Source: an uncultured Gammaproteobacteria bacterium (GTDB lineage Bacteria > Patescibacteriota > Microgenomatia > Levybacterales > UBA12049). From it: a DNA stretch of 64,000 nucleotides. The translations under genes and the position numbers were made by a program. Shown here piece by piece: positions 164 through 37,975 of this stretch; the stretch's first letter is position 1; each line of letters begins with the position of its first letter. Under the pieces are notes generated by a model. It searched no databases, was not told the DNA's origin, and saw only the letters and a program-made list of their open reading frames with translations. Where the stretch lies: positions 23,740 through 87,739 of the forward strand of contig CAZCYO010000003.1 in assembly GCA_964503265.1 (NCBI GenBank), in the 5' to 3' direction.

Positions 164-253
164 TGGCGGAGAGGGCGAGATTCGAACTCGCGGTGAGCGT
201 GAACCCACAGATGTTTTCAAGACAACCGCACTAGACCACTATGCGACCTCTCC
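164..253 (-). tRNA. tRNA-Ser (anticodon UGA), long variable arm, CCA encoded
   Basis: Reverse complement reads GGAGAGGTCGCATAGTGGTCTAGTGCGG..CTTGAAA..GTTCGAATCTCGCCCTCTCCGCCA. Acceptor GGAGAGG/CCTCTCC pairs, anticodon loop CUUGAAA, T-loop GTTCGAATC, about 90 nt. Confidence 0.8.
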
Positions 254-414
254 ATGATTATTTTTTAAATCTAAATTCAGATCGTCCTGGTGAGGGCGAC
301 CTCTCCATATTGGCATATAGCGCTTGGCTAATAGCGAATAGTTGGAGTATTATAACAAATTTTTCTATGGTATGTTGCCTTGACTGACACTTCTTCCTCA
401 AGTACACTAATAGT

Positions 415-1083
415 ATGGCTGCCCCAGGTGAACATGATATAACATATCTTCCAAAAGTTGCTCTTGATCTTCCTCGTCCTGAACTCATGTTTCCAGAACC
501 TGAAGAAGAAATTCCAGCGCACGCATCATCGCTTAATCAGCATACACAGCGAGATGAAGAACATGAATATCAGAATCAATCTTCAAATGACGTAAAGACA
601 TTACTCTCATGGCATGCTCCCGGTCGGCCATTTCAGAGAAAAGGGAAAGAGTATTACGTGAATATTCTGCTTATCATGCTGCTTCTTCAGGTAGTGCTTT
701 TCCTCTTTCATGAATATTTGGCGATGTTCGTCGTGCTTTCATTTGTATTTGTCGCATTTGCTCTCGCTACTGTTCCACCGAAGGACTTTTTTTACCGAAT
801 CTCAACTGAAGGGATTATGATTGAAGACCATTTCTTTCTCTGGCAGGAGTTATATGATTTTTACTTTCGAAGGCTTCCAAATGGAGAAGACATACTACTC
901 GTTCGAACGAAAGCATATATCCCAGGGGAGTTAACGATAGTACTCGGACAACTCCATAAAGAACAGGTGAGACAGATACTTATCCCATATCTACCATTTA
1001 GAGAATACGTCAAACCCACCTTTGTCGAAAAATCAGGAGACTGGTTATCCCACAATTTTCCACTTGAGAAAACGAAACAATAG
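415..1083 (+). CDS. hypothetical membrane protein (acidic N-terminus, two TM helices)
   Basis: 222-aa ORF. Hydrophobic stretch ILLIMLLLQVVLFLF..FVVLSFVFVAFALA. No recognisable catalytic motif. Confidence 0.4.
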   Translation: MAAPGEHDITYLPKVALDLPRPELMFPEPEEEIPAHASSLNQHTQRDEEHEYQNQSSNDVKTLLSWHAPGRPFQRKGKEYYVNILLIMLLLQVVLFLFHEYLAMFVVLSFVFVAFALATVPPKDFFYRISTEGIMIEDHFFLWQELYDFYFRRLPNGEDILLVRTKAYIPGELTIVLGQLHKEQVRQILIPYLPFREYVKPTFVEKSGDWLSHNFPLEKTKQ

Positions 1084-1143
1084 TCCTCGATAGGGTTCAT
1101 TTGCTTCAAAACTCAGAATCAGTTAAAATTACAAGCGTAATAT

Positions 1144-1217
1144 GCTCTCGTAGCTCAGCTGGATAGAGCGCAACTTTGCGGAAGTTGAGGCCGTTGGTCC
1201 GAATCCAATCGAGAGCA
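1144..1217 (+). tRNA. tRNA-Arg (anticodon GCG by hand folding)
   Basis: GCTCTCG-TA-GCTC-AGCTGGATA-GAGC-G-CAACT-TTGCGGA-AGTTG-AGGCC-GTTGG-TCCGAAT-CCAAT-CGAGAGC-A. All four stems pair. Anticodon loop TTGCGGA. Confidence 0.7.
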
Positions 1218-1304
1218 CACTGTCAAACGCGGTCTCGCGTGAAGCTATATTTGTAAGTATATCGGAGGTGGGACGATCTGAGACTAGATTTAAGAAATAA
1301 TCAG

Positions 1305-1393
1305 GGAGGGATCGCATAGTGGTCTAGTGCGGCGGTTTCGAAAACCGCTGTCTCGAGTAATCGGGACCGGGAGTTCAAATCTCCCTCCCTCCG
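1305..1393 (+). tRNA. tRNA-Ser (anticodon CGA)
   Basis: GGAGGGATCGCATAGTGGTCTAGTGCG-GCGGT-TTCGAAA-ACCGC-long variable arm-GGGAG-TTCAAAT-CTCCC-TCCCTCC-G. Acceptor and T arm pair. Long extra arm as in class II tRNAs. Confidence 0.8.
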
Positions 1394-1424
1394 CAGTATT
1401 TAATCTCTTATGAAGTGAAAATTG

Positions 1425-3563
1425 TTAGTGTAGATCGAATGTTGATCCAAATGCTCCGGCAGCTCCCGTCGCTCCCATTGCTCCAGCTCCGATTGCAGCA
1501 GCTCCGGCTCCTGACGCGACAGCCAATCCGATTGGTGCTGCAACTACCATTCCTAATGCCGCAAGAATTGCTAAGATCCATTTCGCTTTTGGCGAATCTG
1601 GAACAATACCTTGTTCACGAAGTGCATTCATAACTTCAGATGATGAACCAGATTGTGCGGAAGCAAAAATTTTACTTAGATTCTCAACTCCACCAAAATT
1701 GTCATGGAGTTTTTTCCATTCATGTTCTTTAAGCGCAAGCTTTCCCATTGCTATTTCAGCTCCGAATACTCCAACAGTTCTATCTGCAGAGCCTCGTGCC
1801 ATAAAGAAGTCTGTCATTAATTTCTTTGTATAGTCTTTCCCAAATTTATCATACGCTGCTGTTAATTGATTTTGTTGTTCTTCAGTTAGTTTATCCATAA
1901 AATCTGCTCCTTCCCAATCTTTGCTATTAGTAGGGAGGATATCAAGGTCTCGAAGAATAAGTTGTTTTACTCCGTCTTCACCATTATAAATAAGATAACT
2001 CATATCGTCTTTCATTTGATCTCTATTTTTCTTTCTATTCTCTCTTCTGGTTGTTCGATCGTAGGTGATCCAATTATTCTTCATTTTATCGGCTAATTTT
2101 TTAGCATCATCTGAACCTTCCTGTTCCATTCTGGCGAGGTCAGCTTCTAAGATATCATCATACTGTTCTTCCATAATCTCGGTAATTGATAATCCCATAA
2201 TTTCTTGCATTTCTTGAATAAGCTTATTTTCCTCTCGAAGACGTGTTTGTCTTGCTTGCTCTTGAGCAGTTCCTGCTTTTGTTCCGTTTGCCGCAATCTC
2301 TCCTTCAGCAGTAGCTATCTTTCCATTACTTTCTGAGATAGCTGCTAGTGATTGTGCCATGCGACTTGTATATTTCCCGTCCACATTGGGAACTGTCATT
2401 GCATTAATTCTATCGGAAAGTGATTTTGCACTGGTAAATCGAGCAGTATCTGCTTGCATTGTTGCATAGTCAGTAAGTGTTGTAGCATGTGCTGCTTCGA
2501 GGTTAGTAATTTCGGCTGTTAAAGCTACTGCTTCGGGGGTGGTTTTATCAGTCATCGCATCAAGCTCAGCTTTTGCCCCTTCGATGTCACCTGAGGCTGT
2601 CATATAATTGTTATACAACTTCACATCAGGATTGCTATTTATAACTACGGTTCTTAGAGTATCAGAGAAGTTTTTAATATCAGCATCAGTCCCTGATGCC
2701 ATATGATCTTTGACCATCTTTTTGAGTTCGTTTTCTTTCTTTTTAATTTCTCCTTTATCAGTAAGAGGAACACCTGCTCCATCAACCATAAAACCAAGTA
2801 GTTTGGCAGATTCGATAACTTGTTTTGTTGACTGGTCAATTCTCGCTTGTTCCTGGTCAATTGTTGCACGTGCTCCTTCTGTGGCTGGATCTTCTTTAAT
2901 TTTAGGTAGTCCGTCTTTTTTCTGTGATACTTCAGAAAGTTTTTGTGAGATTTTTTTAGCCAGATCTGGTTTTGATAGAAGGGTTTGTTCAACGAATGCT
3001 CTTTTACTTTCAGCATCAGGAAACGCATTTAATGTATCACCGAATGTCTCTTGAAAATACGAAGAATTTATAAGTGAATCAAGTGTCGTTTGGCGAAATG
3101 TCGCTAGCGCTTTTCTATCGGGGATACCATGCTTGGTTAAAATATCTGGTATTTTTGCTCCAGGCTCATTTAATTCACTACGAATCTGAGAGTAACTAAG
3201 AAAACCTGTAAGCTCTGTAACAACTTTTCCTGCTTCATCTCGAGCGTCTTTAAACTCACCTCGAGGATTTTTTTCTCCATTTCCAAAAGCTTGTACGAGT
3301 GCATCTTTATTATCAGGGTCAAATTCAGGTACCTTTTTCCCTCTTTCTAAATTTTTACGAAATATTTCTCTTCCAGAAGCTTGAGGAGCGGTTTCTCGTA
3401 TATCTTTTGCACGACGTTGACCAAAATCTATCCTTCGTGCTTGTTCGGGGTTTGTTGTATCATCAATTTTGTCACGCAAATTAGACTTTACTTCACCCAT
3501 TGAAGAAAGTACTTCTCCTGCTTTATATTCTCGTGGTGCTGCTGATGGTGTTCCGTCTGCCAT
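1425..3563 (-). CDS. large (712 aa) charged coiled-coil protein with C-terminal Gly/Ala-rich (glycine-zipper) hydrophobic tail; unknown function
   Basis: Long ORF rich in K/E/D/Q heptad-like segments. The C-terminal 60 aa are WILAILAALGMVVAAPIGLAVASGAGAAAIGAGAMGATGAAGAFG. No enzymatic motif recognised. Confidence 0.5.
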   Translation of the reverse strand: MADGTPSAAPREYKAGEVLSSMGEVKSNLRDKIDDTTNPEQARRIDFGQRRAKDIRETAPQASGREIFRKNLERGKKVPEFDPDNKDALVQAFGNGEKNPRGEFKDARDEAGKVVTELTGFLSYSQIRSELNEPGAKIPDILTKHGIPDRKALATFRQTTLDSLINSSYFQETFGDTLNAFPDAESKRAFVEQTLLSKPDLAKKISQKLSEVSQKKDGLPKIKEDPATEGARATIDQEQARIDQSTKQVIESAKLLGFMVDGAGVPLTDKGEIKKKENELKKMVKDHMASGTDADIKNFSDTLRTVVINSNPDVKLYNNYMTASGDIEGAKAELDAMTDKTTPEAVALTAEITNLEAAHATTLTDYATMQADTARFTSAKSLSDRINAMTVPNVDGKYTSRMAQSLAAISESNGKIATAEGEIAANGTKAGTAQEQARQTRLREENKLIQEMQEIMGLSITEIMEEQYDDILEADLARMEQEGSDDAKKLADKMKNNWITYDRTTRRENRKKNRDQMKDDMSYLIYNGEDGVKQLILRDLDILPTNSKDWEGADFMDKLTEEQQNQLTAAYDKFGKDYTKKLMTDFFMARGSADRTVGVFGAEIAMGKLALKEHEWKKLHDNFGGVENLSKIFASAQSGSSSEVMNALREQGIVPDSPKAKWILAILAALGMVVAAPIGLAVASGAGAAAIGAGAMGATGAAGAFGSTFDLH

Positions 3564-3564
3564 A

Positions 3565-4239
3565 TTAGTTAGTTATATTAGTTAACTGATCTTGAATAGA
3601 ATCAATTTTATTTTGGTCAGCATCTGTTGTAATGTATTTCATTCCGATAGTGTTATAGATAGGCCAGCGTTCGCCAAGTTCTTTTAGGAAATTGACGAGG
3701 TCGGCTTTCGTTTGGACGGAATCTAAATGATCGAGGACGAATTGGGAAGAAGCTTCTGAATCTTCAACCTCTATCTCTCCTTTATCGAGAGCTTCCATCA
3801 TCGCATCAGCTAAGTCTTTATAGAGACTTTCTCTATCTTCCGAAGGTATCTCTCCTAGAACTGAAGCTGGGGCAGGGGAAGTGGTTGCCTGTTCAGTTGG
3901 AGCTGTCGTCACTGCAGGTTCAGGGGCTGGAGAGGTGGAAACGGGGTCGGAAACAGGAGATGGTTGCATAGGAGATGGTATATCTGTCTGGACTGGAGGA
4001 GCGAATGTGTCAGACACAGCAGGTGTCATCGGGTCTGGGATAGCTGGGATGACACTTGGAGCAGGTGGGGTGACTGGATCAGGAGACGTCTCAGGGATCG
4101 TCGGCATAGGAGATGGAACAGTTGGAGTAGGAGTAGACCATGATGATGTCGGAACGACAGGAGTGTCTGTCTGAGGTACAGGTGGAGTAGGTGTGATTGA
4201 CGAATCAACAGAAACATCTGGAGCAGCATTAGAATCCAT
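3565..4239 (-). CDS. Pro/Thr/Ser-rich low-complexity protein with small C-terminal globular domain; unknown function
   Basis: 224-aa ORF 2 nt upstream of the large coiled-coil gene, so likely co-transcribed. The first ~130 aa are PT(S)-rich linker-like sequence. Confidence 0.45.
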   Translation of the reverse strand: MDSNAAPDVSVDSSITPTPPVPQTDTPVVPTSSWSTPTPTVPSPMPTIPETSPDPVTPPAPSVIPAIPDPMTPAVSDTFAPPVQTDIPSPMQPSPVSDPVSTSPAPEPAVTTAPTEQATTSPAPASVLGEIPSEDRESLYKDLADAMMEALDKGEIEVEDSEASSQFVLDHLDSVQTKADLVNFLKELGERWPIYNTIGMKYITTDADQNKIDSIQDQLTNITN

Positions 4240-4287
4240 ATATTAACAGTATGGGAAATCTGAAATGTTGTCAATACACGAGTCTTT

Positions 4288-4698
4288 TTAGCTTTGTTTT
4301 GCGACAGAAATCGCGCCTTCGACATTACCTGCTTTAATATGTGTCGCCATGGCTGATATTTTCCGTTGTCGTTCTTCTTCTTCTATCGGTCCGGCAAATT
4401 TTACGTACAGCGCTTTCGCCTCATCGTATCTAACACTCAGTGAATTAAGTTTTTGTACCAAATCATGTTTGTCCTTGAAGGGAAGGAGGGCAAGAAATTC
4501 TTGGGAAAGTTTTTGGGCTTCTTCAACGGTTAGCTTACTTGATTCTAAATTATCGATGATATGTGCTACCAAGTCTTTCTCAACCTCCTGAGTGAGTGGA
4601 TCTGTGTATGTAGAATCGTCCTGTCCAGACGGTGGCGTTGATGAGTTTTGTGGATCCATAATCGATTCTATCATTGCCAAAAAAGCGAGAAAAGTCAA
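4288..4698 (-). CDS. hypothetical protein (first gene of a 3-gene minus-strand islet)
   Basis: 136-aa ORF co-oriented with the two downstream genes. Start codon uncertain (alternative Met at MIESIMD). Confidence 0.4.
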   Translation of the reverse strand: MTFLAFLAMIESIMDPQNSSTPPSGQDDSTYTDPLTQEVEKDLVAHIIDNLESSKLTVEEAQKLSQEFLALLPFKDKHDLVQKLNSLSVRYDEAKALYVKFAGPIEEEERQRKISAMATHIKAGNVEGAISVAKQS

Positions 4699-4785
4699 GA
4701 AAAAGGAAAGAGGGGAATGGTATAATCGTGAATGGTTATTAGTTATTGGTGATTAGTTATTAGACATTTTTTGTGAAGTGACTGT

Positions 4786-4927
4786 TACCTAATCGCTCAG
4801 GACTAATAAGGTGGGAAGGATTTGCCCTGCTTAGGCAGGACGATCCTACTATCTATAATCAAGAAATTAATCAAGGAAGGATCGCCCTCGACAGGACGAG
4901 TCCTAATTATAATTAAATAATTAATCA
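4786..4927 (+). repeat. two decayed tandem copies of a tRNA-Ser 5'-half-like unit (~55-65 bp) immediately upstream of tRNA-Ser(GGA)
   Basis: GGTGGGAAGGATTTGCCCTGCTTAGGCAGGACGATCC...AATCAAGGAAGGATCGCCCTCGACAGGACGAGTCC...AATCAAGGAAGGATCGC then the true tRNA. The motif AATCAAGGAAGGATCGC occurs twice. A shortened relative, GGTGGGACGATC...AATCAGGGAGGGATCGC, precedes tRNA-Ser(CGA) at 1268-1304. Confidence 0.6.
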
Positions 4928-5014
4928 AGGAAGGATCGCATAGTGGTCTAGTGCGCACGCTTGGAAAGCGTGTGTCGCCGCAAGGTGACCGGGGGTTCGA
5001 ATCCCCCTCCTTCC
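4928..5014 (+). tRNA. tRNA-Ser (anticodon GGA)
   Basis: GGAAGGATCGCATAGTGGTCTAGTGCG-CACGC-TTGGAAA-GCGTG-variable arm-CGGGGG-TTCGAAT-CCCCC-TCCTTCC-G. All arms pair. Confidence 0.8.
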
Positions 5015-5138
5015 GCCGCGTCGGAGCTCAGCTTAACCGTTTCGTCAGCCTGTTGGCTGATTGCACTTTTCAGTTGGTTCCTCCTCTTTAACTTAGCGTA
5101 GCAAAGTTAGAAAGAACAACTAAAACAACAAAAAGACT

Positions 5139-5166
5139 CCATATTTCAGGAGTCTTTTTTATTTGA
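5139..5166. terminator. bidirectional rho-independent terminator (AAAAAGACTCC-loop-GGAGTCTTTTTT)
   Basis: An 8-bp stem AGACTCCT/AGGAGTCT flanked by an A-run on one side and a T-run on the other. It lies between the 3' end of tRNA-Ser(GGA) (+) and the 3' end of the hsp20 gene (-). Confidence 0.7.
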
Positions 5167-5178
5167 AAGCAGTCAGAC

Positions 5179-5583
5179 TTATTTCGTCTTTACTGTGATC
5201 TTCTTGGGTTGTGTCACTGGAGATTTCGTGAAGGTTATTCGCATTACTCCATGGACACTTTCTGCCTCTGGTTCGCGGGTTAGATCTAACTCTCCGGGAA
5301 CTGCAACACGGTATGAGAAAGAACTCGTTGCCTTGCGGTAGAATTTTTTTTCTTTTTCTTCCTCAGCTATTTCACCTTTAATCCAGAGTACGCCTTTATC
5401 AAATGTTATCTCAACATGTTTCGGATCGACTCCGGGAAGCGCTGCTTCAACATATACGTGTTCGTTATCTTCTGAAACAGTAAGCCCTGTCGGTGAGGTG
5501 AAACTCATCGTATCATCCTCATCAAGAAGGGTACGAAACTGTGGAAATGTGAAGAAAGATCGTGGAAGTATATCATTGTTCAT
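5179..5583 (-). CDS. Hsp20/alpha-crystallin family small heat-shock protein
   Basis: 134 aa. Alpha-crystallin domain signature ...YVEAALPGVDPKHVEITFDKGVLWIKGE...SFSYRVAVPGELD...VHGVMRITF. Confidence 0.85.
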   Translation of the reverse strand: MNNDILPRSFFTFPQFRTLLDEDDTMSFTSPTGLTVSEDNEHVYVEAALPGVDPKHVEITFDKGVLWIKGEIAEEEKEKKFYRKATSSFSYRVAVPGELDLTREPEAESVHGVMRITFTKSPVTQPKKITVKTK

Positions 5584-5788
5584 CTATGTATCACCTCCTT
5601 TCCTAGATTAAATATCTACAATTTGTGATGTCACGATGGTAATCGGGACGCCGTTGTAACAATAATTAGCAATACTATACAACGACTGCTAATTTTTGTC
5701 AAGAGGGTGTGTCTTGAGGAGGGAGAATCAATTTCGCTATTATAACAATTGACGGGATACTATTTCTTTACTACTATCTATACAACAT

Positions 5789-6739
5789 ATGTCCGATCAA
5801 TCAGGAAAAGAGGGAGAGCAAGGAGCACATAACTTAGCTAAACAGCCAGATAGTAAGATTCCAGAAGCGTCGCAACCAGGAGAAAAGCAAGTAGATAATC
5901 TTCATGGCAGTCAAGAAGGCGAGAGTACTAATGAAGCAAGTATCTTAGCTCATGCACTTGATCCACTTGAAGTACTCGCATCTCCATTAGAAAGAGAAAA
6001 ATTACTGTATGTACTCTCAACTATTGGTCGTGCACAAGATGCTATAACAGCTGCCTTTCCACAGTTAGGAGGAGATTATCCGTATAAAGCCTTTATGAAG
6101 GTTGATCCAACTCTTAAAAAGCCTCACGCTAGTTTTCTAAATTACAGAGGAGTAAAAGTAATTGTTTTAGAAAGTCCTACAGATTACACATCGGATGGTT
6201 TTGGAGATGAGGTAGTAGCATCACCTTTTTCAGAAGAGACTCAGTATAAAAGGGATATAGTATCTCTTTATGCGATGCTTCACGAAGTGGGAGGACATCT
6301 GACGTATGACCATATCACAAATCCTGATAATCTTCCTACAACTCCAGACTATTACAATACTATTGATGCAGCAGTGAGTGAAGGATTTGCTGTTATGACA
6401 GAATTAGCAGTAGTAGATAAAATTATAAATGGAACAGTTCCAGGATTTACTGCAGAAGAAAGAGCTGCTTTGTCTCAACTACGAGCAGAAAGACTTAACA
6501 GTTCTTATCTAACCGGTCTTCATGCAAACGAAAACGCGTATGGAGAAGGGCATACTATCATGCAAAACGTGTATGAGAAAGGTGGTATGGATGGAGCGCT
6601 AGATTTTATAGGACAGTTAGATTCATACAAAACCAGAGGTGTTTCTCGTGGAGTACCTCACTATCGTCAATCACTTATTACTGGAGATTCAGAAGAATTT
6701 CTTGGCTTCTTTCAAAAACCTTCAGATGAAGAAGTATAA
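5789..6739 (+). CDS. hypothetical protein (contains HEVGGH, a non-canonical HExxxH motif)
   Basis: 316-aa ORF with an acidic, low-complexity N-terminus and no TM segment. MLHEVGGHLTYDH resembles a zincin motif but with the wrong spacing. Confidence 0.4.
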   Translation: MSDQSGKEGEQGAHNLAKQPDSKIPEASQPGEKQVDNLHGSQEGESTNEASILAHALDPLEVLASPLEREKLLYVLSTIGRAQDAITAAFPQLGGDYPYKAFMKVDPTLKKPHASFLNYRGVKVIVLESPTDYTSDGFGDEVVASPFSEETQYKRDIVSLYAMLHEVGGHLTYDHITNPDNLPTTPDYYNTIDAAVSEGFAVMTELAVVDKIINGTVPGFTAEERAALSQLRAERLNSSYLTGLHANENAYGEGHTIMQNVYEKGGMDGALDFIGQLDSYKTRGVSRGVPHYRQSLITGDSEEFLGFFQKPSDEEV

Positions 6740-6744
6740 ATACA

Positions 6745-6772
6745 AAGTGGCGGAGGAGACAGGATTTGAACC
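6745..6772 (-). repeat. orphan duplicated 3' fragment of a tRNA-Ser-like gene (T-arm plus acceptor plus CCA), candidate att-site scar
   Basis: Minus strand reads ACAGG-TTCAAAT-CCTGT-CTCCTCC-G-CCA. There is no matching 5' half (GGAGGAG...) in the flanking 100 nt. It closely resembles the 3' end of tRNA-Ser(GCT) ~670 bp away (GCAGG-TCCGAAT-CCTGT-ACCCTCC-G). Confidence 0.55.
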
Positions 6773-6800
6773 TGTGTGAGTCTTGCGACTTGGACGTATG

Positions 6801-7439
6801 TTAATCGAAGAATGATTCACTTTTTTTTAATAATTCTTCATACAATCCAATTAACTTTAACTGTAATTTAAAGTCATAATATCGTAAGCTGCATGTTCCC
6901 AGGTATGTTTTCCTGTGTTTTCCTCCTCTAATTTCTGTAATGGTAGGTTTGATAAATCTCTCGGGGGGAATAGAGAGAAGGTTACTCCAGTACTCTCTAA
7001 TCTCAGAAAAATTATGTATATTGTGAATCTGCAAATGAACTCGTAACTTTGTTTCATTAATGGAAAATGCATTTCTTAACAATGTAAGAAATAACCTAAT
7101 AAGATTGGGATCACTATTCGTAAAAATCATTTTATTGCTTGCCGGATATTTAGTTCCTTCGCACCAGTAGAGTATTGAAAGATAAATTTTTGCTTGTGTA
7201 GAAGATAAAGTAGTAATTGAATCTAGAGAAGATATTTCAGATTGTTTTATTTCAATGCGTTTTCTATCATTACTTAATAATAATGTGTCTTGTCTTGAGG
7301 TTATTGTTTCACCTTTACACCAATTGCGGATAGTAGTTGCTGGAATGCCAGTTATTTTTTGTAATTCGGCAAAAGAATATCCCTTCGCTTTTCGTAGGTC
7401 AACTGCTGAGATAATATCTGCATCTTGGTACTTCCTCAT
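6801..7439 (-). CDS. HTH-domain protein, possible LAGLIDADG-type homing endonuclease (weak call)
   Basis: N-terminal HTH GYSFAELQKITGIPATTIRNWCKG. Downstream YLSILYWCEGTKYP...LIRLFLTLLRNAF fits the LAGLIDADG helix pattern (hydrophobic-x-G-hydrophobic-hydrophobic-D/W-x-E-G). I trimmed the start to MRKYQ so the gene begins immediately after tRNA-Ser(GCT). It sits between the tRNA and its duplicated 3' fragment. Confidence 0.35.
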   Translation of the reverse strand: MRKYQDADIISAVDLRKAKGYSFAELQKITGIPATTIRNWCKGETITSRQDTLLLSNDRKRIEIKQSEISSLDSITTLSSTQAKIYLSILYWCEGTKYPASNKMIFTNSDPNLIRLFLTLLRNAFSINETKLRVHLQIHNIHNFSEIREYWSNLLSIPPERFIKPTITEIRGGKHRKTYLGTCSLRYYDFKLQLKLIGLYEELLKKSESFFD

Positions 7440-7442
7440 AAG

Positions 7443-7527
7443 CGGAGGGTACAGGATTCGGACCTGCGGACAGTTATTCACCGTCACGGCTTAGCAAGCC
7501 GCTCCATTACCACTCTGGCAACCCTCC
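7443..7527 (-). tRNA. tRNA-Ser (anticodon GCU)
   Basis: Reverse complement GGAGGGT-TG-CCAGAGTGGTAATGG...GCGGC-TTGCTAA-GCCGT-long variable arm-GCAGG-TCCGAAT-CCTGT-ACCCTCC-G. Acceptor and anticodon stems pair. The D-arm fold is less clear. Confidence 0.65.
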
Positions 7528-8280: not shown

Positions 8281-9726
8281 TTATTTCCCCTGGCATTCTG
8301 TTCTCACAACAGGAATAGTATCTTTGTGTATGGCTTTGGCTAGCTTGCATGTTTTTATGATATTTATTCGTACATCGGTATTTGATGGATTTAATTTTTT
8401 GGCTTTTTGGAACTCTGTGAGTGCTTTTTCTGGCTCAAAATATACGAAGTGAATAAGACCTAATTGATTATGTTTTTCTGCACTTTCGGGAAGAAGATGA
8501 AGCTCTGTCCAGAGGGTAGGAATGTAGTTTTTCCAACTCATAAGTGCTTTAGGTGTTATAAAGGCGTAGTAGCCAAGTAAGCAAACTATACAAGATAGTC
8601 CGAGTACCTGGAAGTACCGGGCAATATATCTTCGGGGAGTACTCTTTACTAGGTGGGAAAACACTGTAGAGATCGTCAGGCTTGCTCCAAAAGATGCGAT
8701 AACTCCGTATCTTCCCCATAGCGGTTGGTTTTGGAATGCAATGCCCACAAGTGGCATGAGGCTTAGGAAAAACCAGATAATTCCAAATCCGATAAATGAT
8801 CGCCTGCGATATAGCCATACGCCAATCACAAAAAACAACAGAATAATTAGACTGTAGACAATCATATCTGGCTGAAATGGCGAAAGAGTAGGGTTTTGTG
8901 ATGTGGCAAGGGTTAGCTTTTTTTGAATAGCTTGAGCTGTGGGTTCTGAGGGGGGAAGGGGGAAAAAAGACGTCGTAATATATGATCCAGCGCCTTCAAT
9001 AATGATTGCGAACTTCTCTAAGATATGACTAAAAAAATCTCCACGATTACTCATATGCACAATTCCTTCGCGAACGATTAAATAGAAAAATGGGATAGAA
9101 ATAATAGAAGCGCCAACTCGTTTCGATATTTTTTCACTATGAAAATGAATATAGATGAAAAAAAGAAGAGGAAGACACAGTGTTATTTCGTACGTAAAGT
9201 ATGCAAGGGAAGAAAAAAAAAGTGTAAGAGAGAGAAATACTTGTGTCTTTTTTTCAAGTAATAGTTGAAAACAAAAAAATGATATAAATGCGAAAAGAAC
9301 ACCCAGTGTGTCAAAGCTAGCAGTGAGATTGGCGACATTATCGACATGCAGAGGCAGAAGTCCGTATATGAGTGCAGTCATGGCTGCTAAGAGATACGTA
9401 TCTGTAAGTTTTTTGGTGATGAAATAAACCAGAATAATACACAGAATATAGATGGATAAGGCTTGCATGTGATAAAGAAATAAATTGGTATGGAAGAGTT
9501 GGTAGCTTATAACGTATGCCAGTGCCCGCACCGGACGATACACGCCCTCATGAGTGTATGGCGCGTCACCCATGAGAAGTTGCGGAATATGGTGAACATC
9601 ATGAATCGCGTCCCACGTAAACAGAAAATCAATTTCATCATACAGAAAGGGAGTGTTAAAAAGAGGGAGGAATATAACGATCACAAAAGCACAAATCGCA
9701 ATAAGCGTGAGGATATCTTTCTTCAT
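8281..9726 (-). CDS. GT-C-type membrane glycosyltransferase-like protein (PMT/TMTC-like) with C-terminal TPR
   Basis: 481 aa, polytopic. N-terminal loop with a DE motif (FLYDEIDFLF) typical of family 39/83-like GT-C enzymes. C-terminal TPR-like LTEFQKAKKLNPSNTDVRINI. One of three paralogous GT-C/TPR proteins in the window. Confidence 0.55.
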   Translation of the reverse strand: MKKDILTLIAICAFVIVIFLPLFNTPFLYDEIDFLFTWDAIHDVHHIPQLLMGDAPYTHEGVYRPVRALAYVISYQLFHTNLFLYHMQALSIYILCIILVYFITKKLTDTYLLAAMTALIYGLLPLHVDNVANLTASFDTLGVLFAFISFFCFQLLLEKKTQVFLSLTLFFSSLAYFTYEITLCLPLLFFIYIHFHSEKISKRVGASIISIPFFYLIVREGIVHMSNRGDFFSHILEKFAIIIEGAGSYITTSFFPLPPSEPTAQAIQKKLTLATSQNPTLSPFQPDMIVYSLIILLFFVIGVWLYRRRSFIGFGIIWFFLSLMPLVGIAFQNQPLWGRYGVIASFGASLTISTVFSHLVKSTPRRYIARYFQVLGLSCIVCLLGYYAFITPKALMSWKNYIPTLWTELHLLPESAEKHNQLGLIHFVYFEPEKALTEFQKAKKLNPSNTDVRINIIKTCKLAKAIHKDTIPVVRTECQGK

Positions 9727-9785: not shown

Positions 9786-9813
9786 AAGCCGCCGGGGTTA
9801 GCCGGCGGCGGGG
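9786..9813 (-). terminator. GC-rich rho-independent terminator for the minus-strand GC-rich cassette
   Basis: Plus strand AAAAAAGCCGCCGG-GGTTAG-CCGGCGGC. On the minus strand an 8-bp GC stem is followed by TTTTTT. Confidence 0.7.
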
Positions 9814-9845
9814 TAGACACATGTGAGGCTGTGTCTCGTGCCTTT

Positions 9846-10169
9846 TTACGGTTGTGAAGGTGGTGGTTGGACCCATGAGACTCGTACGATTTCGTCGAGT
9901 GGGAACTCGCTCGTGTACGAGACGAAGGGAGACAACCGACCTTCTAGAGACGAGATGACGAGTAATCCTGTTTCTGCTTCAATGACTTTTCCGACGTGGA
10001 TCACGTCGTCTTCGAGATTGAAGTAGAGAGCGATCGCTCCTGGAGCTGGTGTTTCCAGTTCTTCAAGTTCGCCACGTAAGAATAACCCCATGACGTGGTT
10101 ATAGTAGTATGTGGATCCGAGAGCGTAGGAAGCAGCGTCTTTATCTGCTGATGCAGATCCGTCAGTCAT
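9846..10169 (-). CDS. hypothetical protein (GC-rich cassette A, gene 3)
   Basis: 107-aa ORF. Local GC is clearly higher than the ~40% background. Confidence 0.4.
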   Translation of the reverse strand: MTDGSASADKDAASYALGSTYYYNHVMGLFLRGELEELETPAPGAIALYFNLEDDVIHVGKVIEAETGLLVISSLEGRLSPFVSYTSEFPLDEIVRVSWVQPPPSQP

Positions 10170-10294
10170 CTTGAACCTCCTGGTGTTATGAGCGCTTCGG
10201 GAACGGGATATCGCGAAGATCAGCGACCTCGCCCTTTAGGGCAGACTGCGTGATGCGGCGAACCACACTGTAGTGGTAGCCCTTCATCTGCTCT

Positions 10295-10549
10295 TCAACG
10301 ACTCCCACGCATTGTCAGGCGATACTGCCTGGAGGGCGCAGGGTTTGAAGACGTGGGGTAGTCATTGAATGGGAGTTCTTGTTGCCATGACTGCAGGTAG
10401 CCTTTCCGAACCAAACTCTCAAGCTCACTAGTCGCAAAGCGGCCGCGAATCTTCCAGTTAATGGTTCCTTCGGTGAAAGTGCCGCTATTGAAAGCAGCGT
10501 CTTGACATGCTCGGAGGACTTCTTGTTCGCCTGGTGTAAGATCATCCAT
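10295..10549 (-). CDS. hypothetical small protein with LuxR/sigma-70-region-4-like N-terminal helix-turn-helix (cassette A, gene 2)
   Basis: 84 aa. LTPGEQEVLRACQDAA resembles the LTxRExEVL HTH start of LuxR/FixJ and sigma region 4. GC-rich. Confidence 0.35.
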   Translation of the reverse strand: MDDLTPGEQEVLRACQDAAFNSGTFTEGTINWKIRGRFATSELESLVRKGYLQSWQQELPFNDYPTSSNPAPSRQYRLTMRGSR

Positions 10550-10565
10550 CGACGCCTCCTTCGTA

Positions 10566-10910
10566 CTATTGTTCGAGCAGCTTCACGGTGGAGTCTGCCC
10601 GAGCCATGATTTCTGCGTGGAAGGCTTTCGCCTCCTGCGCCGCATCGTGTTCGAGAAGAGCATCCAGCCAGAGGGGGACTGTAGCGTAGAGAATCTCACT
10701 CACTGAGAAGGGCATACGAAGTGTGGTTACATGATCGTCAATTGATTGCATCATGTGCAAGACGAAGCCGCCCACAATTCGTCCCTGTCCGGCGAGCTCT
10801 GCGAAGCGTGGGTAGAGATCATCTACCAGTTTCGTAGCAGAGATGACGCTGGTTAAGCGCCTGATCATCTCCTCCCGATCCGGAAGGATTACACGAATGT
10901 CACTTGGCAT
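10566..10910 (-). CDS. hypothetical protein (cassette A, gene 1)
   Basis: I chose the start at MPSDIRV because a GAAGGAGA Shine-Dalgarno lies 7 nt upstream. GC-rich. Confidence 0.4.
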   Translation of the reverse strand: MPSDIRVILPDREEMIRRLTSVISATKLVDDLYPRFAELAGQGRIVGGFVLHMMQSIDDHVTTLRMPFSVSEILYATVPLWLDALLEHDAAQEAKAFHAEIMARADSTVKLLEQ

Positions 10911-10957
10911 AGGGTATTTCTCCTTCTCTGATTCAGGCTTATGCGTATCCAAATGGA

Positions 10958-11046
10958 TAGCATCTTAGGTAAGAATGAATTCCTGCCCAAAATGCTATCC
11001 ACAAAGGATTTAATTATTTCCGCAAACTGTAAAAGTGCAAAAAAAA
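10958..11046 (-). promoter_or_regulatory. upstream control module of cassette A: 10-bp inverted repeat TGGATAGCAT...ATGCTATCCA plus conserved TTTGCGGAAAT and TTTTGCAC-TTTACA motifs
   Basis: Same architecture and near-identical motifs as the region upstream of cassette B (13533-13625). Confidence 0.5.
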
Positions 11047-11154: not shown

Positions 11155-11391
11155 TTATATGAAATGTTTATTTCTGAAGGCGAAGCCTGAGTTAGTTTTT
11201 AAGTAATCTTCAAATAAAACTGCTTTTTCTTTGGACTGAAAAGCAGCATAGAAAATTAAAATGAAAGGTCGTAAATTTTTTGTTGAAGCTACAGAACCTT
11301 CTGTATGAGCTTTTATGCGGTTCTTGAGATTAGAAGAATATCCATGATAAAACGTTTTATCTTTAAGTTGGAGTATGTATACATAATACAT
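11155..11391 (-). CDS. GIY-YIG nuclease family small protein
   Basis: 78 aa. MYYVYILQLKDKTFYHGYSSNLKNRIKAH is a canonical GIY-YIG module (YVYIL..YhG.T.NL..R...H). Confidence 0.8.
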   Translation of the reverse strand: MYYVYILQLKDKTFYHGYSSNLKNRIKAHTEGSVASTKNLRPFILIFYAAFQSKEKAVLFEDYLKTNSGFAFRNKHFI

Positions 11392-11399
11392 ATTCTCAG

Positions 11400-11442
11400 T
11401 GTATCAAAATGAAAAATGCCCCACTTCGTCCGCCAGTTGGCG
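11400..11442 (-). terminator. rho-independent terminator downstream of ssrA (nested hairpin plus U-run)
   Basis: Minus strand: GCCCC-UAACGUA-GUCCGCC-AACU-GGCGGAC-GAAGU-GGGGC-AUUUUUCAUUUU. Confidence 0.6.
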
Positions 11443-11540
11443 GACTACGTTAGGGGCACCCTTCGCTACTATTTTCAAGCCATTTTTTTAGGAGTGTGGC
11501 CTGCCACTCCGTAGCTCATCCCGTTAGGGTATGAGCGAAG

Positions 11541-11970
11541 GGTGGAGATGTCCGGGAGCGATCCGGAGTCCGAAATATATTTTTAAAAACATCTACAAGC
11601 GTAGTCACAATTTATAGTGTCGTCTGAAACGTGTTCGAGTGACGGAATTTTTCAGACCTAGATCTCTTAATACCACGAAAGTCGAAATCAGTCTCTCTCG
11701 CTGTTTTCCTAACTGTTTTTAGGTCGTTACTTCCACGTTAGGGAGGAAGTAGGACTGTTCAAAGAGCTCGGGTCTTAAGCAGCAAGTGCGAAAGATTGAG
11801 GTGCGAATGCACCGTCAAAAGCGGATTGAACTCCGTCAGCTGCCTTGAGGGCGAATTGACGGACGCTGCGCATTGAGTCAGCATTTATTTTTTGATAATG
11901 TTTTACGACAACTTATCAATGTCGGCTTGCAGTTTTTAAAGAACGTAAATCGTCGAATCAAATCATCCCC
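11541..11970 (-). ncRNA. ssrA: tmRNA (SsrA), ~430 nt
   Basis: The 5' end, GGGGATGATTTGATTCGACGATTTACG, is near-identical to the canonical tmRNA 5' end GGGGCUGAUUCUGGAUUCGACGGGAUUUGCG. The 3' end reads GGAC-TCCGG-ATCGCTC-CCGGA-CATCTCC-A-CC, and the acceptor GGGGATG/CATCTCC includes the G3:U70 alanine identity pair. An internal reading frame ends ...GCA CTT GCT GCT TAA (…FALAA*), the typical tag terminus. The gene lies immediately downstream of smpB. Confidence 0.8.
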
Positions 11971-12146
11971 AAGCAAAAATCAACTATGATTGTTATTTGC
12001 GAACATTGATTTTTCAAATTCGAATATCGAAATCCTAAACTCGAAACTCCACTTCGTTCAAGAACTTCGCGGAGCAGGCTTTTTTGCTTGCCACTCCGTA
12101 GCTTTAGCGAAGGGTGGTTTCGTATTTCGTGCTTTGGTATTCGGAT

Positions 12147-12590
12147 TTAATATTTTCCCTCAGTATATGCATCTTCTATCTCGCGTGCGATATCTCTATT
12201 TTTTATGGCTTCTTTCTTTTCAAAGGCTTTTTTCGATTTCGCGATACCGAGTTCTGCTTTAATGAGGAGACGTGTAGTATACACCGATATAGGCACGATT
12301 GTCAAGTTTGACCCGTCCATTTTAGCCTTGAGAGAGAGAATTTGTTTCTTATGAAGTAGCAGTTTTCGAGTCCGTTTCGGGTCGTAATTTTCCTGTCTGG
12401 AATTAACATACGGAAAGATACTCGCATTCATTAAATACGCTTCATTTCCACGAATTCTCGCAAAGCTTCCCGTCAAATCTGCATGACCATTACGGATAGA
12501 TTTTACCTCAGCCCCTGTGAGCATAATCCCAGCCTCAAAGGTTTCAAGGATTTGATAGTCGTAGGTTGCCTTTTTATTCACAATTTTCAT
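12147..12590 (-). CDS. smpB: SsrA-binding protein SmpB
   Basis: KKATYDYQILETFEAGIMLTGAEVKSIRNG...LLLHKKQI matches the SmpB signature. Confidence 0.9.
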   Translation of the reverse strand: MKIVNKKATYDYQILETFEAGIMLTGAEVKSIRNGHADLTGSFARIRGNEAYLMNASIFPYVNSRQENYDPKRTRKLLLHKKQILSLKAKMDGSNLTIVPISVYTTRLLIKAELGIAKSKKAFEKKEAIKNRDIAREIEDAYTEGKY

Positions 12591-12684
12591 GAGAGTATGA
12601 TACCTGAAAAAAGGCTAAGAGCAAAGAGGACAGCTAATGGCATAAGGCTCGCTTCTCTTTATGGCTTATGGGTATACATGAGAA

Positions 12685-12720
12685 GACCCCGCTCCGGCGA
12701 ATGCCGAGGCGGGGTCTAGG
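12685..12720 (-). terminator. GC-rich hairpin at the 3' end of cassette B (weak terminator)
   Basis: GACCCCGCTCCGG-CGAATG-CCGAGGCGGGGTC. There is no clean U-run, so the call is weak. Confidence 0.4.
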
Positions 12721-12751
12721 GTGCGCGTTACTTGCGGAAAGTATTTAGCGA

Positions 12752-12910
12752 CTTAGGAAGAAACAAACGAGCCCTGCGAGCTCGAATGGGATGGATAACA
12801 CTACGAATGTTGATCCTCCAACGAGGAGGAAAAGAAACGAGAAGAGAATGCCTGCACAGACGCACATTGCGCCGGCAGCGGTCATGCTAGATTTCCAGGC
12901 CTTCATCGAT
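12752..12910 (-). CDS. possible small membrane protein (53 aa), cassette B
   Basis: GC-rich short ORF MKAWKSSMTAAGAMCVCAGILFSFLF... This is my own translation of the minus strand. It is below the 60-aa cutoff of the ORF track. Confidence 0.25.
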
Positions 12911-12981
12911 GATCTCCTTGCCGCTTGAAAGCGGTGTTATCTATGATCTGTCGAGGATCGTCAGATGTACTCCTTCTCCCG

Positions 12982-13494
12982 CTATGCGGGCCAGTTAATG
13001 AAGTCATCGGTCCAGAGAGGGATTTTGTGTGTGAAGACCCTCCAGAAGTCCTCTTTGGTAGAATTCTCCATTTCCCTTTCCCTAGGCGTTCGAAGATCGA
13101 TCCGCCTGATCAACATAGCGTTGCTACCCCAATTGATGAACTCGCCCTGCTTTGCGATATCGTCCAGCGCGTTTAGCGCATTATGACGGGTGATCTCAAA
13201 GAAGGTTCGGCCCTCGGTTGTGCCTGAGGATGTAGCCCAAGCAATCATGGTAGCAGGGTTGTGTAGTCGCAACATACCGTAGATCGAGATGTTGTTTACA
13301 GCTTCGCACTCCTGTGCAGTGATATATGATGTTGCCACGAGCAGAGATTTCCGCTCACGGTGGGCCGCGATCACGCTGCTGGGAAACGAAATGTATCGTG
13401 CTTCTTGGCGCATGTAGCGCTGATAGGTGAGGATATCGAATCCTCGATTCACCAGGTCTGCGATGAACTCATTCCAAGGAGTTGTCGACATCTT
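12982..13494 (-). CDS. hypothetical protein (cassette B main gene)
   Basis: I chose the start at MSTTPWNEF because a GGAAGGAG Shine-Dalgarno lies upstream. GC-rich. No recognisable motif. Confidence 0.4.
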   Translation of the reverse strand, partial: KMSTTPWNEFIADLVNRGFDILTYQRYMRQEARYISFPSSVIAAHRERKSLLVATSYITAQECEAVNNISIYGMLRLHNPATMIAWATSSGTTEGRTFFEITRHNALNALDDIAKQGEFINWGSNAMLIRRIDLRTPREREMENSTKEDFWRVFTHKIPLWTDDFINWPA

Positions 13495-13532
13495 TGTGCT
13501 CCTTCCGTGATATAGGGGTTTAATAGACGACT

Positions 13533-13625
13533 TTCTAGCTTGAGTGATTATCAAGCCACAAAGTCGTCTATTAAACAATTAATTTCCGCAAATCCCGATT
13601 ACATCGGGAAAAATTGTAAACGTGC
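13533..13625 (-). promoter_or_regulatory. upstream control module of cassette B: 16-bp perfect inverted repeat TTTAATAGACGACTTT...AAAGTCGTCTATTAAA plus TTTGCGGAAAT and TTTTGCAC-G-TTTACA motifs
   Basis: Perfect 16-bp inverted-repeat arms separated by ~27 nt (which contains a smaller inverted repeat). The flanking motifs are shared with cassette A. Confidence 0.5.
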
Positions 13626-32624: not shown

Positions 32625-32800
32625 GTGTTGGAAAAGTATAGGAAATCACGATGAAATTTCGTGACTGTGCCGCAACTGTGAAAGTCAGAAAACTATACTT
32701 AAGTCGTTTCATTCCCGAGCAGGAGTATTCAAGTATAGTAATCTTGTAATCCTTCTTAGGAATTGTTTTTTCTAAAGAAGGATTTTTTGTAAGAATTCTC
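32625..32800 (+). promoter_or_regulatory. cobalamin riboswitch-like leader (compact variant) with intrinsic terminator, upstream of pduO-type gene
   Basis: GGAAATCACGATGAAATTTCGTGACTGTGCCGCAACTGTGAAAGTCAGAAAAC contains the CCGCaACUGU core and an AGUCAG B12-box-like element. Followed by the terminator TCCTTCTTAG...CTAAAGAAGGATTTTTT (32757-32797). Confidence 0.5.
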
Positions 32801-37901: not shown

Positions 37902-37975
37902 GGGTGTGTAGCTCAGTGGTAGAGCGCGACTCTTATAAAGTCGATGTCCTTGGTCCGATCCCAAGCACACCCACC
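37902..37975 (+). tRNA. tRNA-Ile (anticodon UAU by hand folding)
   Basis: GGGTGTG-TA-GCTC-AGTGGTA-GAGC-G-CGACT-CTTATAA-AGTCG-ATGTC-CTTGG-TCCGATC-CCAAG-CACACCC-A-CC. All stems are Watson-Crick. Positions 34-36 read TAT. Confidence 0.65.

Follow-up and report, generated by a model that had tools for sequence, protein, structure and literature searches.

A very probably functional standard-form tmRNA with atypical loops and a putative long tag beside smpB in a Patescibacteria (Microgenomates) bacterium

Two questions arise from the DNA that follows smpB in this contig: whether it encodes a functional tmRNA (ssrA), and whether the oddities of that RNA reflect damage or descent. A first-pass annotation of the window, by which we mean the whole 64-kb stretch of DNA analysed here, had placed a tmRNA at 11541-12146 and described a long RNA with a non-canonical T-loop and a tag of ambiguous length. 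We examined the locus with covariance models, with ARAGORN, and by comparison with related loci. Taken together, these sequence comparisons make it very probable that a functional tmRNA of standard form, paired with the adjacent SmpB, is encoded on the minus strand from 11970 to 11541 in this Patescibacteria (Microgenomates) bacterium.

The Rfam tmRNA model RF00023, the check that the first-pass annotation had proposed, matches the minus strand from 11970 to 11540 with a score of 105.8 bits (E = 2.5e-40; gathering threshold, 47), which is far beyond chance. The alignment runs end to end (model positions 1-374 of 374), is not truncated, and establishes that this ssrA belongs to a thoroughly known family; its oddities are real yet lineage-wide. 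The match begins at 11970, where the 5' end had already been placed, and the sequence from there reads GGGGATGATTTGATTCGACGATTTACG (in a longer reading, GGGGATGATTTGATTCGACG...). The 3' end, GGAC-TCCGG-ATCGCTC-CCGGA-CATCTCC-A-CC(C), terminates at 11541/11540, and the tRNA-like acceptor noted earlier is borne out: GGGGAUG pairs with CAUCUCC, and the G3:U70 pair is invariant in 32 of 32 relatives. Since the genome encodes ACC followed by C, so that CCA is not fully encoded, the terminal A must be added after transcription; most relatives likewise lack an encoded CCA. At 431 nt as matched by RF00023, the RNA is indeed as long as the earlier estimate of about 430 nt. The annotated interval does contain it but also takes in the 176-nt smpB-ssrA spacer, the RNA itself being confined to 11540/11541-11970. 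The Rfam scan found no second tmRNA in the 64-kb window, and around ssrA it returned no other RNA family at E up to 1 beyond a sub-threshold tmRNA_permuted match, which is an echo of the T-arm of this same tmRNA.

The partner gene is equally clear. The open reading frame from 12590 to 12147 encodes SmpB, matching Pfam PF01668 over profile positions 3-141 of 143 with E = 1.7e-48. The tmRNA gene, which had been described as lying immediately downstream of smpB, follows this intact gene on the same strand after 176 nt. The gene order in the window, [637-aa protein]-smpB-ssrA-GIY-YIG-ComF-tRNA-Ser, is kept in relatives. The features of the locus are collected in Table 1.

Table 1. Features assigned at the smpB-ssrA locus, in window positions
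Feature	Position	Strand	Basis or remark
smpB, 147 aa, tmRNA protein partner	12147..12590	(-)	Pfam PF01668
Structured hairpin element, upstream copy, in the 176-nt smpB-ssrA spacer	12036..12122	(-)	Fold -28.4 kcal/mol, z = -2.35
Candidate sigma-70-like ssrA promoter, TTGAAA-17-AACAAT	11989..12017	(-)	Consensus scan, 9/12 matches
tmRNA (ssrA), standard one-piece form	11540..11970	(-)	Rfam RF00023
Acceptor stem, 5' strand, GGGGAUG	11964..11970	(-)	Pairs with 11544-11550
Reduced D-loop analogue, AUUUGAUUC, single G	11955..11963	(-)	Sequence and clade comparison
Helix 2, 5' strand	11925..11954	(-)	cmscan alignment
Pseudoknot 1 (PK1; helices 3 and 4)	11892..11924	(-)	Covariation
Putative tag reading frame, 35 codons	11778..11882	(-)	Translation and comparative data
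Tag stop UAA, helix 5 region	11775..11777	(-)	Aligns with relatives' stops just before PK2
Helix 5, 3' part, and pseudoknot ring PK2-PK4 (approximate bounds)	11601..11771	(-)	cmscan alignment
Helix 2, 3' strand, with conserved GCUUGUAG and GGAC	11568..11600	(-)	Alignments
T-arm UCCGG/CCGGA with 7-nt loop AUCGCUC (loop 11556-11562)	11551..11567	(-)	Sequence
Acceptor stem, 3' strand CAUCUCC, discriminator A, CC	11541..11550	(-)	Sequence
3'-trailer hairpin element, downstream copy	11452..11546	(-)	Fold -38.3 kcal/mol, z = -4.5
Strong hairpin followed by a U-rich run (probable terminator)	11405..11470	(-)	Fold -35.0 kcal/mol, z = -6.4

SmpB-based searches gave 141 related loci, 61 from species-representative genomes and 80 from metagenomes. 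The closest SmpB relatives, at 61-71% identity, come from Patescibacteria MAGs labelled Levy-/Gottesmanbacteria or Microgenomates. The searched collections hold no near-identical relative, and the metagenome scan returned none above ~70% SmpB identity. Rfam detects a full-length tmRNA in 17 of the 20 closest smpB loci, where the gene mostly follows smpB directly and in three cases lies on the opposite strand; among 40 more distant loci it detects 22. An nhmmer profile added about 50 further tmRNAs from metagenome loci. The tmRNA of the window groups by sequence with those of its closest SmpB relatives. From this material we drew 84 unique Patescibacteria tmRNAs for the loop statistics (46 non-canonical, the window included, and 38 canonical), an alignment of 32 clade tmRNAs for covariation, and 17 relatives with tags of 24-40 aa for the long-tag frame test.

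To the 32-sequence alignment we applied the acceptor stem, T-arm, helix 2 and PK1 as given by the Rfam alignment of the window. With this structure imposed, 87.4% of cells are paired, against 36-48% in controls with the structure slid along the alignment; compensatory changes occur in 25 of the 44 imposed pairs, and none of 500 shuffles reached the observed values. The T-stem is 100% paired with compensatory changes in all five pairs, and helix 3 of PK1 has them in three of four pairs (96.9% of cells paired). Helices 2a-2c show covariation; helix 2d is invariant. An independent RNAalifold prediction again contains helix 2, PK1 and stems in the PK2-PK4 region; compensatory changes occur in 37 of its 51 pairs and are numerous in the PK2-PK4 stems. 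Covariation of this strength among 32 relatives establishes the secondary structure and indicates that the ssrA of the window is not a pseudogene. Some relatives carry insertions of their own. A hairpin, CTCCGAT-NNAA-ATCGGAG, flanked by AAA/TAAA, is inserted at different sites in two related tmRNAs, in the PK1 loop of one (L074:3507-3885, minus strand) and between the PK3 and PK4 regions of the other (L016:3442-3840, minus strand), and two more (L017 and L092) have a different insertion of ~42 nt in PK1.

The T-loop was correctly flagged as non-canonical. AUCGCUC, read as A54 U55 C56 G57 C58, is without U54 and A58, and the D-loop contains a single G, so that the RNA departs from the consensus U54-U55-C56-R57-A58 and from the D-loop GG, both of which are typical of tmRNAs but not strictly defining. 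This pattern is shared by 46 unique tmRNAs of Levy-/Gottesmanbacteria-type Microgenomates. All 46 have U55 and C56, an invariance which indicates that selection still acts on the loop. A purine occupies position 57 (A in 44, G in 2), position 54 accepts any base, position 58 varies among C, A and U, and U54 and A58 never occur together. The D-loop GG is absent from all 46, with a single G kept, and present in 36 of the 38 tmRNAs with canonical T-loops. Those 38 keep UUCRA; Woesebacteria- and Shapirobacteria-type sequences, which have the classical GGGUUCGAUUCCC arm, are among them. Exceptions to the typical loops are already documented, in the Reclinomonas mitochondrion and in Caulobacter (PMC1168896). 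D- and T-loop interactions have been reported as necessary for SmpB binding (PMC3968760). Given the other criteria, the atypical loops are a lineage variant and no ground for exclusion from the tmRNA family; across the relatives compared, they and the long tag are inherited lineage traits and not damage. That both loops changed jointly while U55 and C56 were retained suggests that the elbow contact is reduced rather than abolished. Because position 54 is A, this RNA cannot carry the usual m5U54 modification. No SmpB column separated the two T-loop classes at an 80%/80% criterion (39 versus 32 unique proteins); thus, there is no evidence of simple co-evolution between loop and protein.

The tag region accounts for the length of the RNA, which is due to a 72-nt insertion relative to the Rfam consensus that falls wholly within the tag frame. 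Translation from the GCU at tmRNA nt 89 (window 11882-11880), which aligns with the resume position of the Rfam model, gives the 35-residue ADSMRSVRQFALKAADGVQSAFDGAFAPQSFALAA; the frame ends, as first read by eye, in GCA CTT GCT GCT TAA (...FALAA*), and its stop lies at 11777-11775. The GCT at about nt 89 had been offered as a possible resume codon, and two results favor it. Throughout the clade the context AAAUAAAU|GCU is kept immediately behind PK1, at nt 86-92, for tags as short as 11 and as long as 40 residues, and ARAGORN picks nt 89 as the resume position once an edited gene becomes detectable. In the window alone, frame +1 likewise runs through the tag region without a stop, so the frame assignment rests on comparative data and the resume context. 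In the 17 long-tag relatives (24-40 aa), frame 0 is open from the homologous resume codon to the homologous stop in every case, and the other two frames hold stops in 16 of 17 and 17 of 17. Clade tags range from 11 to 40 aa in many lengths, all in frame between the homologous resume and stop codons, and end in YAYA/ALAA-type motifs. Of the ambiguous span of 11 to 35 aa first proposed, the conserved context and frame favor the upper value, and we consider it likely that the tag comprises 35 encoded residues. The first-pass reading had been made to depend on conservation of the acceptor stem and the tag frame in orthologs, and both are conserved (G3:U70 in 32/32, frame 0 open in 17/17).

Known tags have 8-35 residues and known tmRNAs 230-400 nt (review, PMC3968760), and the commonest tag length is 10 aa (PMC11915505); the window tmRNA thus stands at or above both quoted upper limits. 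Two relatives have tags longer than the quoted range, of 37 residues (L001:3527-3954) and 40 residues (L010:3481-3917). Several long tags, AKSSIEQELLAKIAKAQAKLDALRALKEQPAYAGAYALAA for example, look amphipathic-helical by eye ahead of the usual YA/LAA end. An apparent internal duplication in the tag (QFALKAA resembling QSFALAA by eye) was dropped after a direct-repeat search and Tandem Repeats Finder were negative at the DNA level.

ARAGORN called no tmRNA in the window. Its performance differs sharply between the two loop classes, with 2 of 46 unique non-canonical clade tmRNAs detected versus 28 of 38 canonical ones. Single in-silico repairs of the window gene (T-loop, whole T-arm, D-loop GG, CCA end or shorter tag) gave no call. 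The T-loop alone was therefore rejected as the cause, its restoration by itself being insufficient. A call was obtained when the 72-nt tag deletion was combined with either a canonical T-loop or a D-loop GG; the miss thus depends on the long tag region together with the atypical loops. For annotation, this is a real ssrA gene that ARAGORN-based pipelines would miss. The public tmRNA Website database, which holds 97,179 sequences, draws chiefly on ARAGORN and BLASTN candidates, supplemented by an Rfam-based rescue of under-represented taxa; it lists 5,275 tmRNAs for 6,765 Patescibacteria genomes (PMC11915505). Given that rescue and that number of entries, tmRNAs of this type are probably already catalogued there.

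The flanks of ssrA carry candidate expression signals and a pair of repeats. The sequence TTGAAA-17-AACAAT is a weak candidate for the ssrA promoter; it would leave a leader of ~12 nt, to be removed by RNase P. Downstream, the strong predicted hairpin at 11405..11470 is followed by AUUUUUCAUUUU, and together they form a probable intrinsic terminator. Two homologous structured hairpin elements bracket the gene as direct repeats (12117->12036 and 11546->11452). Both contain CCACCCTTCGCT and AGCTACGGAGTGGCA(A/G)GC, a 32-nt near-identical core, as well as an A-run and CTTGAA. In each, CGAAG(G/T)GG pairs with CCACCCTTCG to close the element. An additional 15-nt hairpin distinguishes the downstream copy, which begins with the terminal CCACC of the tmRNA. 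There are no further copies in the 64-kb window, and the motifs are absent from the 61 related loci, from viral contigs and from Rfam. The pair may act in termination or processing, may represent a dispersed repeat, or may be scars of recombination.

A gene for a stand-alone GIY-YIG protein of 78 aa (11155-11391, minus strand) comes immediately after the probable ssrA terminator. A homologue lies near ssrA in 28 related loci, with 64-71% identity for the best matches shown, and this small gene is a conserved ssrA neighbor. The otherwise conserved order around smpB-ssrA is interrupted by a TPR/membrane protein ORF (8281-9726) and by GC-rich blocks at 9800-11000 and 12600-13600 (GC 0.50-0.54 versus a background of 0.35-0.42). 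The blocks contain orphan ORFs at 10566-10952, 10295-10549, 9846-10169 and 12982-13578, none of which has a Pfam or PHROG match; neither they nor the TPR gene have homologues among the 141 related loci. Four tRNA-Ser genes (UGA, CGA, GGA and GCU anticodons) and a tRNA-Arg (GCG) are clustered nearby at 164-7527, and tRNA-Ser/Arg clusters also flank smpB-ssrA in many related loci. Elsewhere in the window, a tRNA-Ile with a genomically encoded UAU anticodon (37902-37975, plus strand) has the T-loop UCCGAUC, with C rather than U at position 55, and an AdoCbl-II (cobalamin) riboswitch aptamer lies at 32626-32703 (plus strand; 52.8 bits, gathering score 36.5).

Could the gene nevertheless be a decaying or non-functional copy, its aberrant loops the product of degeneration? 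Such a reading would draw on the loss of U54, A58 and one D-loop G, on the silence of ARAGORN, and on an Rfam score below the 130-183 bits of canonical Patescibacteria tmRNAs. Yet 46 unique sequences, drawn from many MAGs, share this loop pattern, and all of them retain U55, C56 and R57; compensatory substitutions maintain the helices, the tag frame is intact, an intact smpB is adjacent, and no second tmRNA exists in the window. Decay is thus scarcely credible. A milder alternative accepts a real tmRNA but has translation resume at a downstream codon, giving a tag much shorter than 35 aa. The 72-nt insertion in the tag region, the prevalence of 10-aa tags (PMC11915505) and the normal short-tag appearance of the C-terminal PQSFALAA all lend themselves to this idea, which nevertheless conflicts with the rule that the sequence immediately upstream determines the resume codon (PMC3968760), here the AAAUAAAU|GCU conserved at nt 86-92. 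It also conflicts with the frame kept between homologous resume and stop codons in tags of 11 to 40 aa and with the choice of nt 89 by ARAGORN in the edited gene. We regard a short tag as very unlikely.

It may also be asked whether ssrA belongs to a mobile element or arrived on one, with the flanking repeats as recombination scars and the GC-rich orphans as cargo. tmRNA genes are often integration sites for genomic islands (PMC11915505). Here, direct repeats with a 32-nt core flank ssrA and occur nowhere else in the 64 kb, and GC-rich blocks, whose ORFs have no homologue in the 141 related loci, lie on both sides of the smpB-ssrA-GIY-YIG unit. Set against this, the order smpB-ssrA-(GIY-YIG)-ComF-tRNA-Ser is conserved in relatives, a synteny that speaks against ssrA itself having a mobile origin, as does the grouping of the tmRNA with those of the closest SmpB relatives. 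Moreover, the neighboring ORFs include no integrase and have no PHROG match, the tmRNA 3' end is not duplicated elsewhere in the window, the tmRNA has no match in phage genomes and the repeat core none in viral contigs, and the repeats fold as hairpins, which is at least as compatible with a role in termination or processing. We consider a mobile origin highly unlikely and retain the functional tmRNA as the very probable reading.

A bolder proposal is that Levy-/Gottesmanbacteria-type Microgenomates carry a remodelled, functionally rewired tmRNA subclass, with a changed elbow and, in a subgroup, expanded tags. We offer it tentatively, as possible but rather doubtful. If it held, loss of the U54-A58 pair and of one of the two D-loop Gs would have reduced the loop-loop contact to one possible G-C56-type pair, and SmpB would carry more of the elbow architecture. 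The subgroup tags would have expanded to 25-40 residues, beyond the published 8-35, and such long, partly helical-looking tags could bring a different recognition of tagged proteins, as in Mycoplasma/Lon. It would also explain why ARAGORN systematically under-detects tmRNA in these genomes. We found no literature discussing the elbow or tag length of the tmRNAs of this clade. The clade is a natural experiment in how much of the T-loop/D-loop elbow tmRNA-SmpB can spare, and some of its tags (35 aa in the window, 37 and 40 aa in relatives) are among the longest seen.

Nothing about this gene calls the accepted mechanism of trans-translation into question. By analogy with established tmRNA biology, ssrA would be expressed as a precursor trimmed at its 5' end by RNase P and at its 3' end by 3' nucleases, and the 3'-terminal A would be added post-transcriptionally to the ACC end. 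AlaRS would charge the RNA with alanine via G3:U70, and Ala-tmRNA-SmpB would enter the empty A site of a stalled ribosome. Translation would resume on the GCU at nt 89, append the 35-residue tag and terminate at UAA, releasing the ribosome and a product presumably marked for proteolysis by its hydrophobic ...FALAA end, which a protease would read.

Compared with the standard one-piece tmRNA (RF00023), of which the E. coli SsrA/10Sa RNA is the archetype, the window tmRNA shares the G3:U70 acceptor stem, a T-arm with a 5-bp stem and 7-nt loop, a reduced D-loop ending in UCGAC, a long helix 2, and PK1 upstream of an Ala resume codon. It also shares an internal reading frame with a hydrophobic ...LAA-type end and a UAA at helix 5, three further pseudoknot regions, and an adjacent smpB. 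It differs in its size (431 versus 230-400 nt), in a putative tag of 35 codons versus the usual 10, at the top of the 8-35 range (PMC3968760), in a T-loop reading AUCGCUC rather than UUCRAnU, in one D-loop G instead of GG, and in a CCA end that is not fully encoded. Other Patescibacteria tmRNAs (Woesebacteria-, Shapirobacteria-type and others; for example L021, L023, L042 and L046) resemble it in their smpB-adjacent order, overall architecture, A-rich resume context and AT-rich helix 2. Unlike it, they have the canonical GGGUUCGAUUCCC T-arm and GGUUUCGAC D-loop, score 130-183 bits, mostly encode tags of 10-17 aa, and are usually found by ARAGORN (28/38). The Mycoplasma/Mesoplasma tmRNAs, whose long ssrA tags are read by Lon, offer a further parallel: they too belong to a genome-reduced lineage and have tags much longer than usual. 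The Mesoplasma florum Lon/ssrA pair is a well-used system, and Gur and Sauer in 2008 reportedly described a Mycoplasma tag of 27 aa where ClpXP is absent. These systems may serve as a precedent for long tags going with a different protease, whereas their tags have no sequence similarity to the window tag, which still ends in a ClpX-like ...ALAA.
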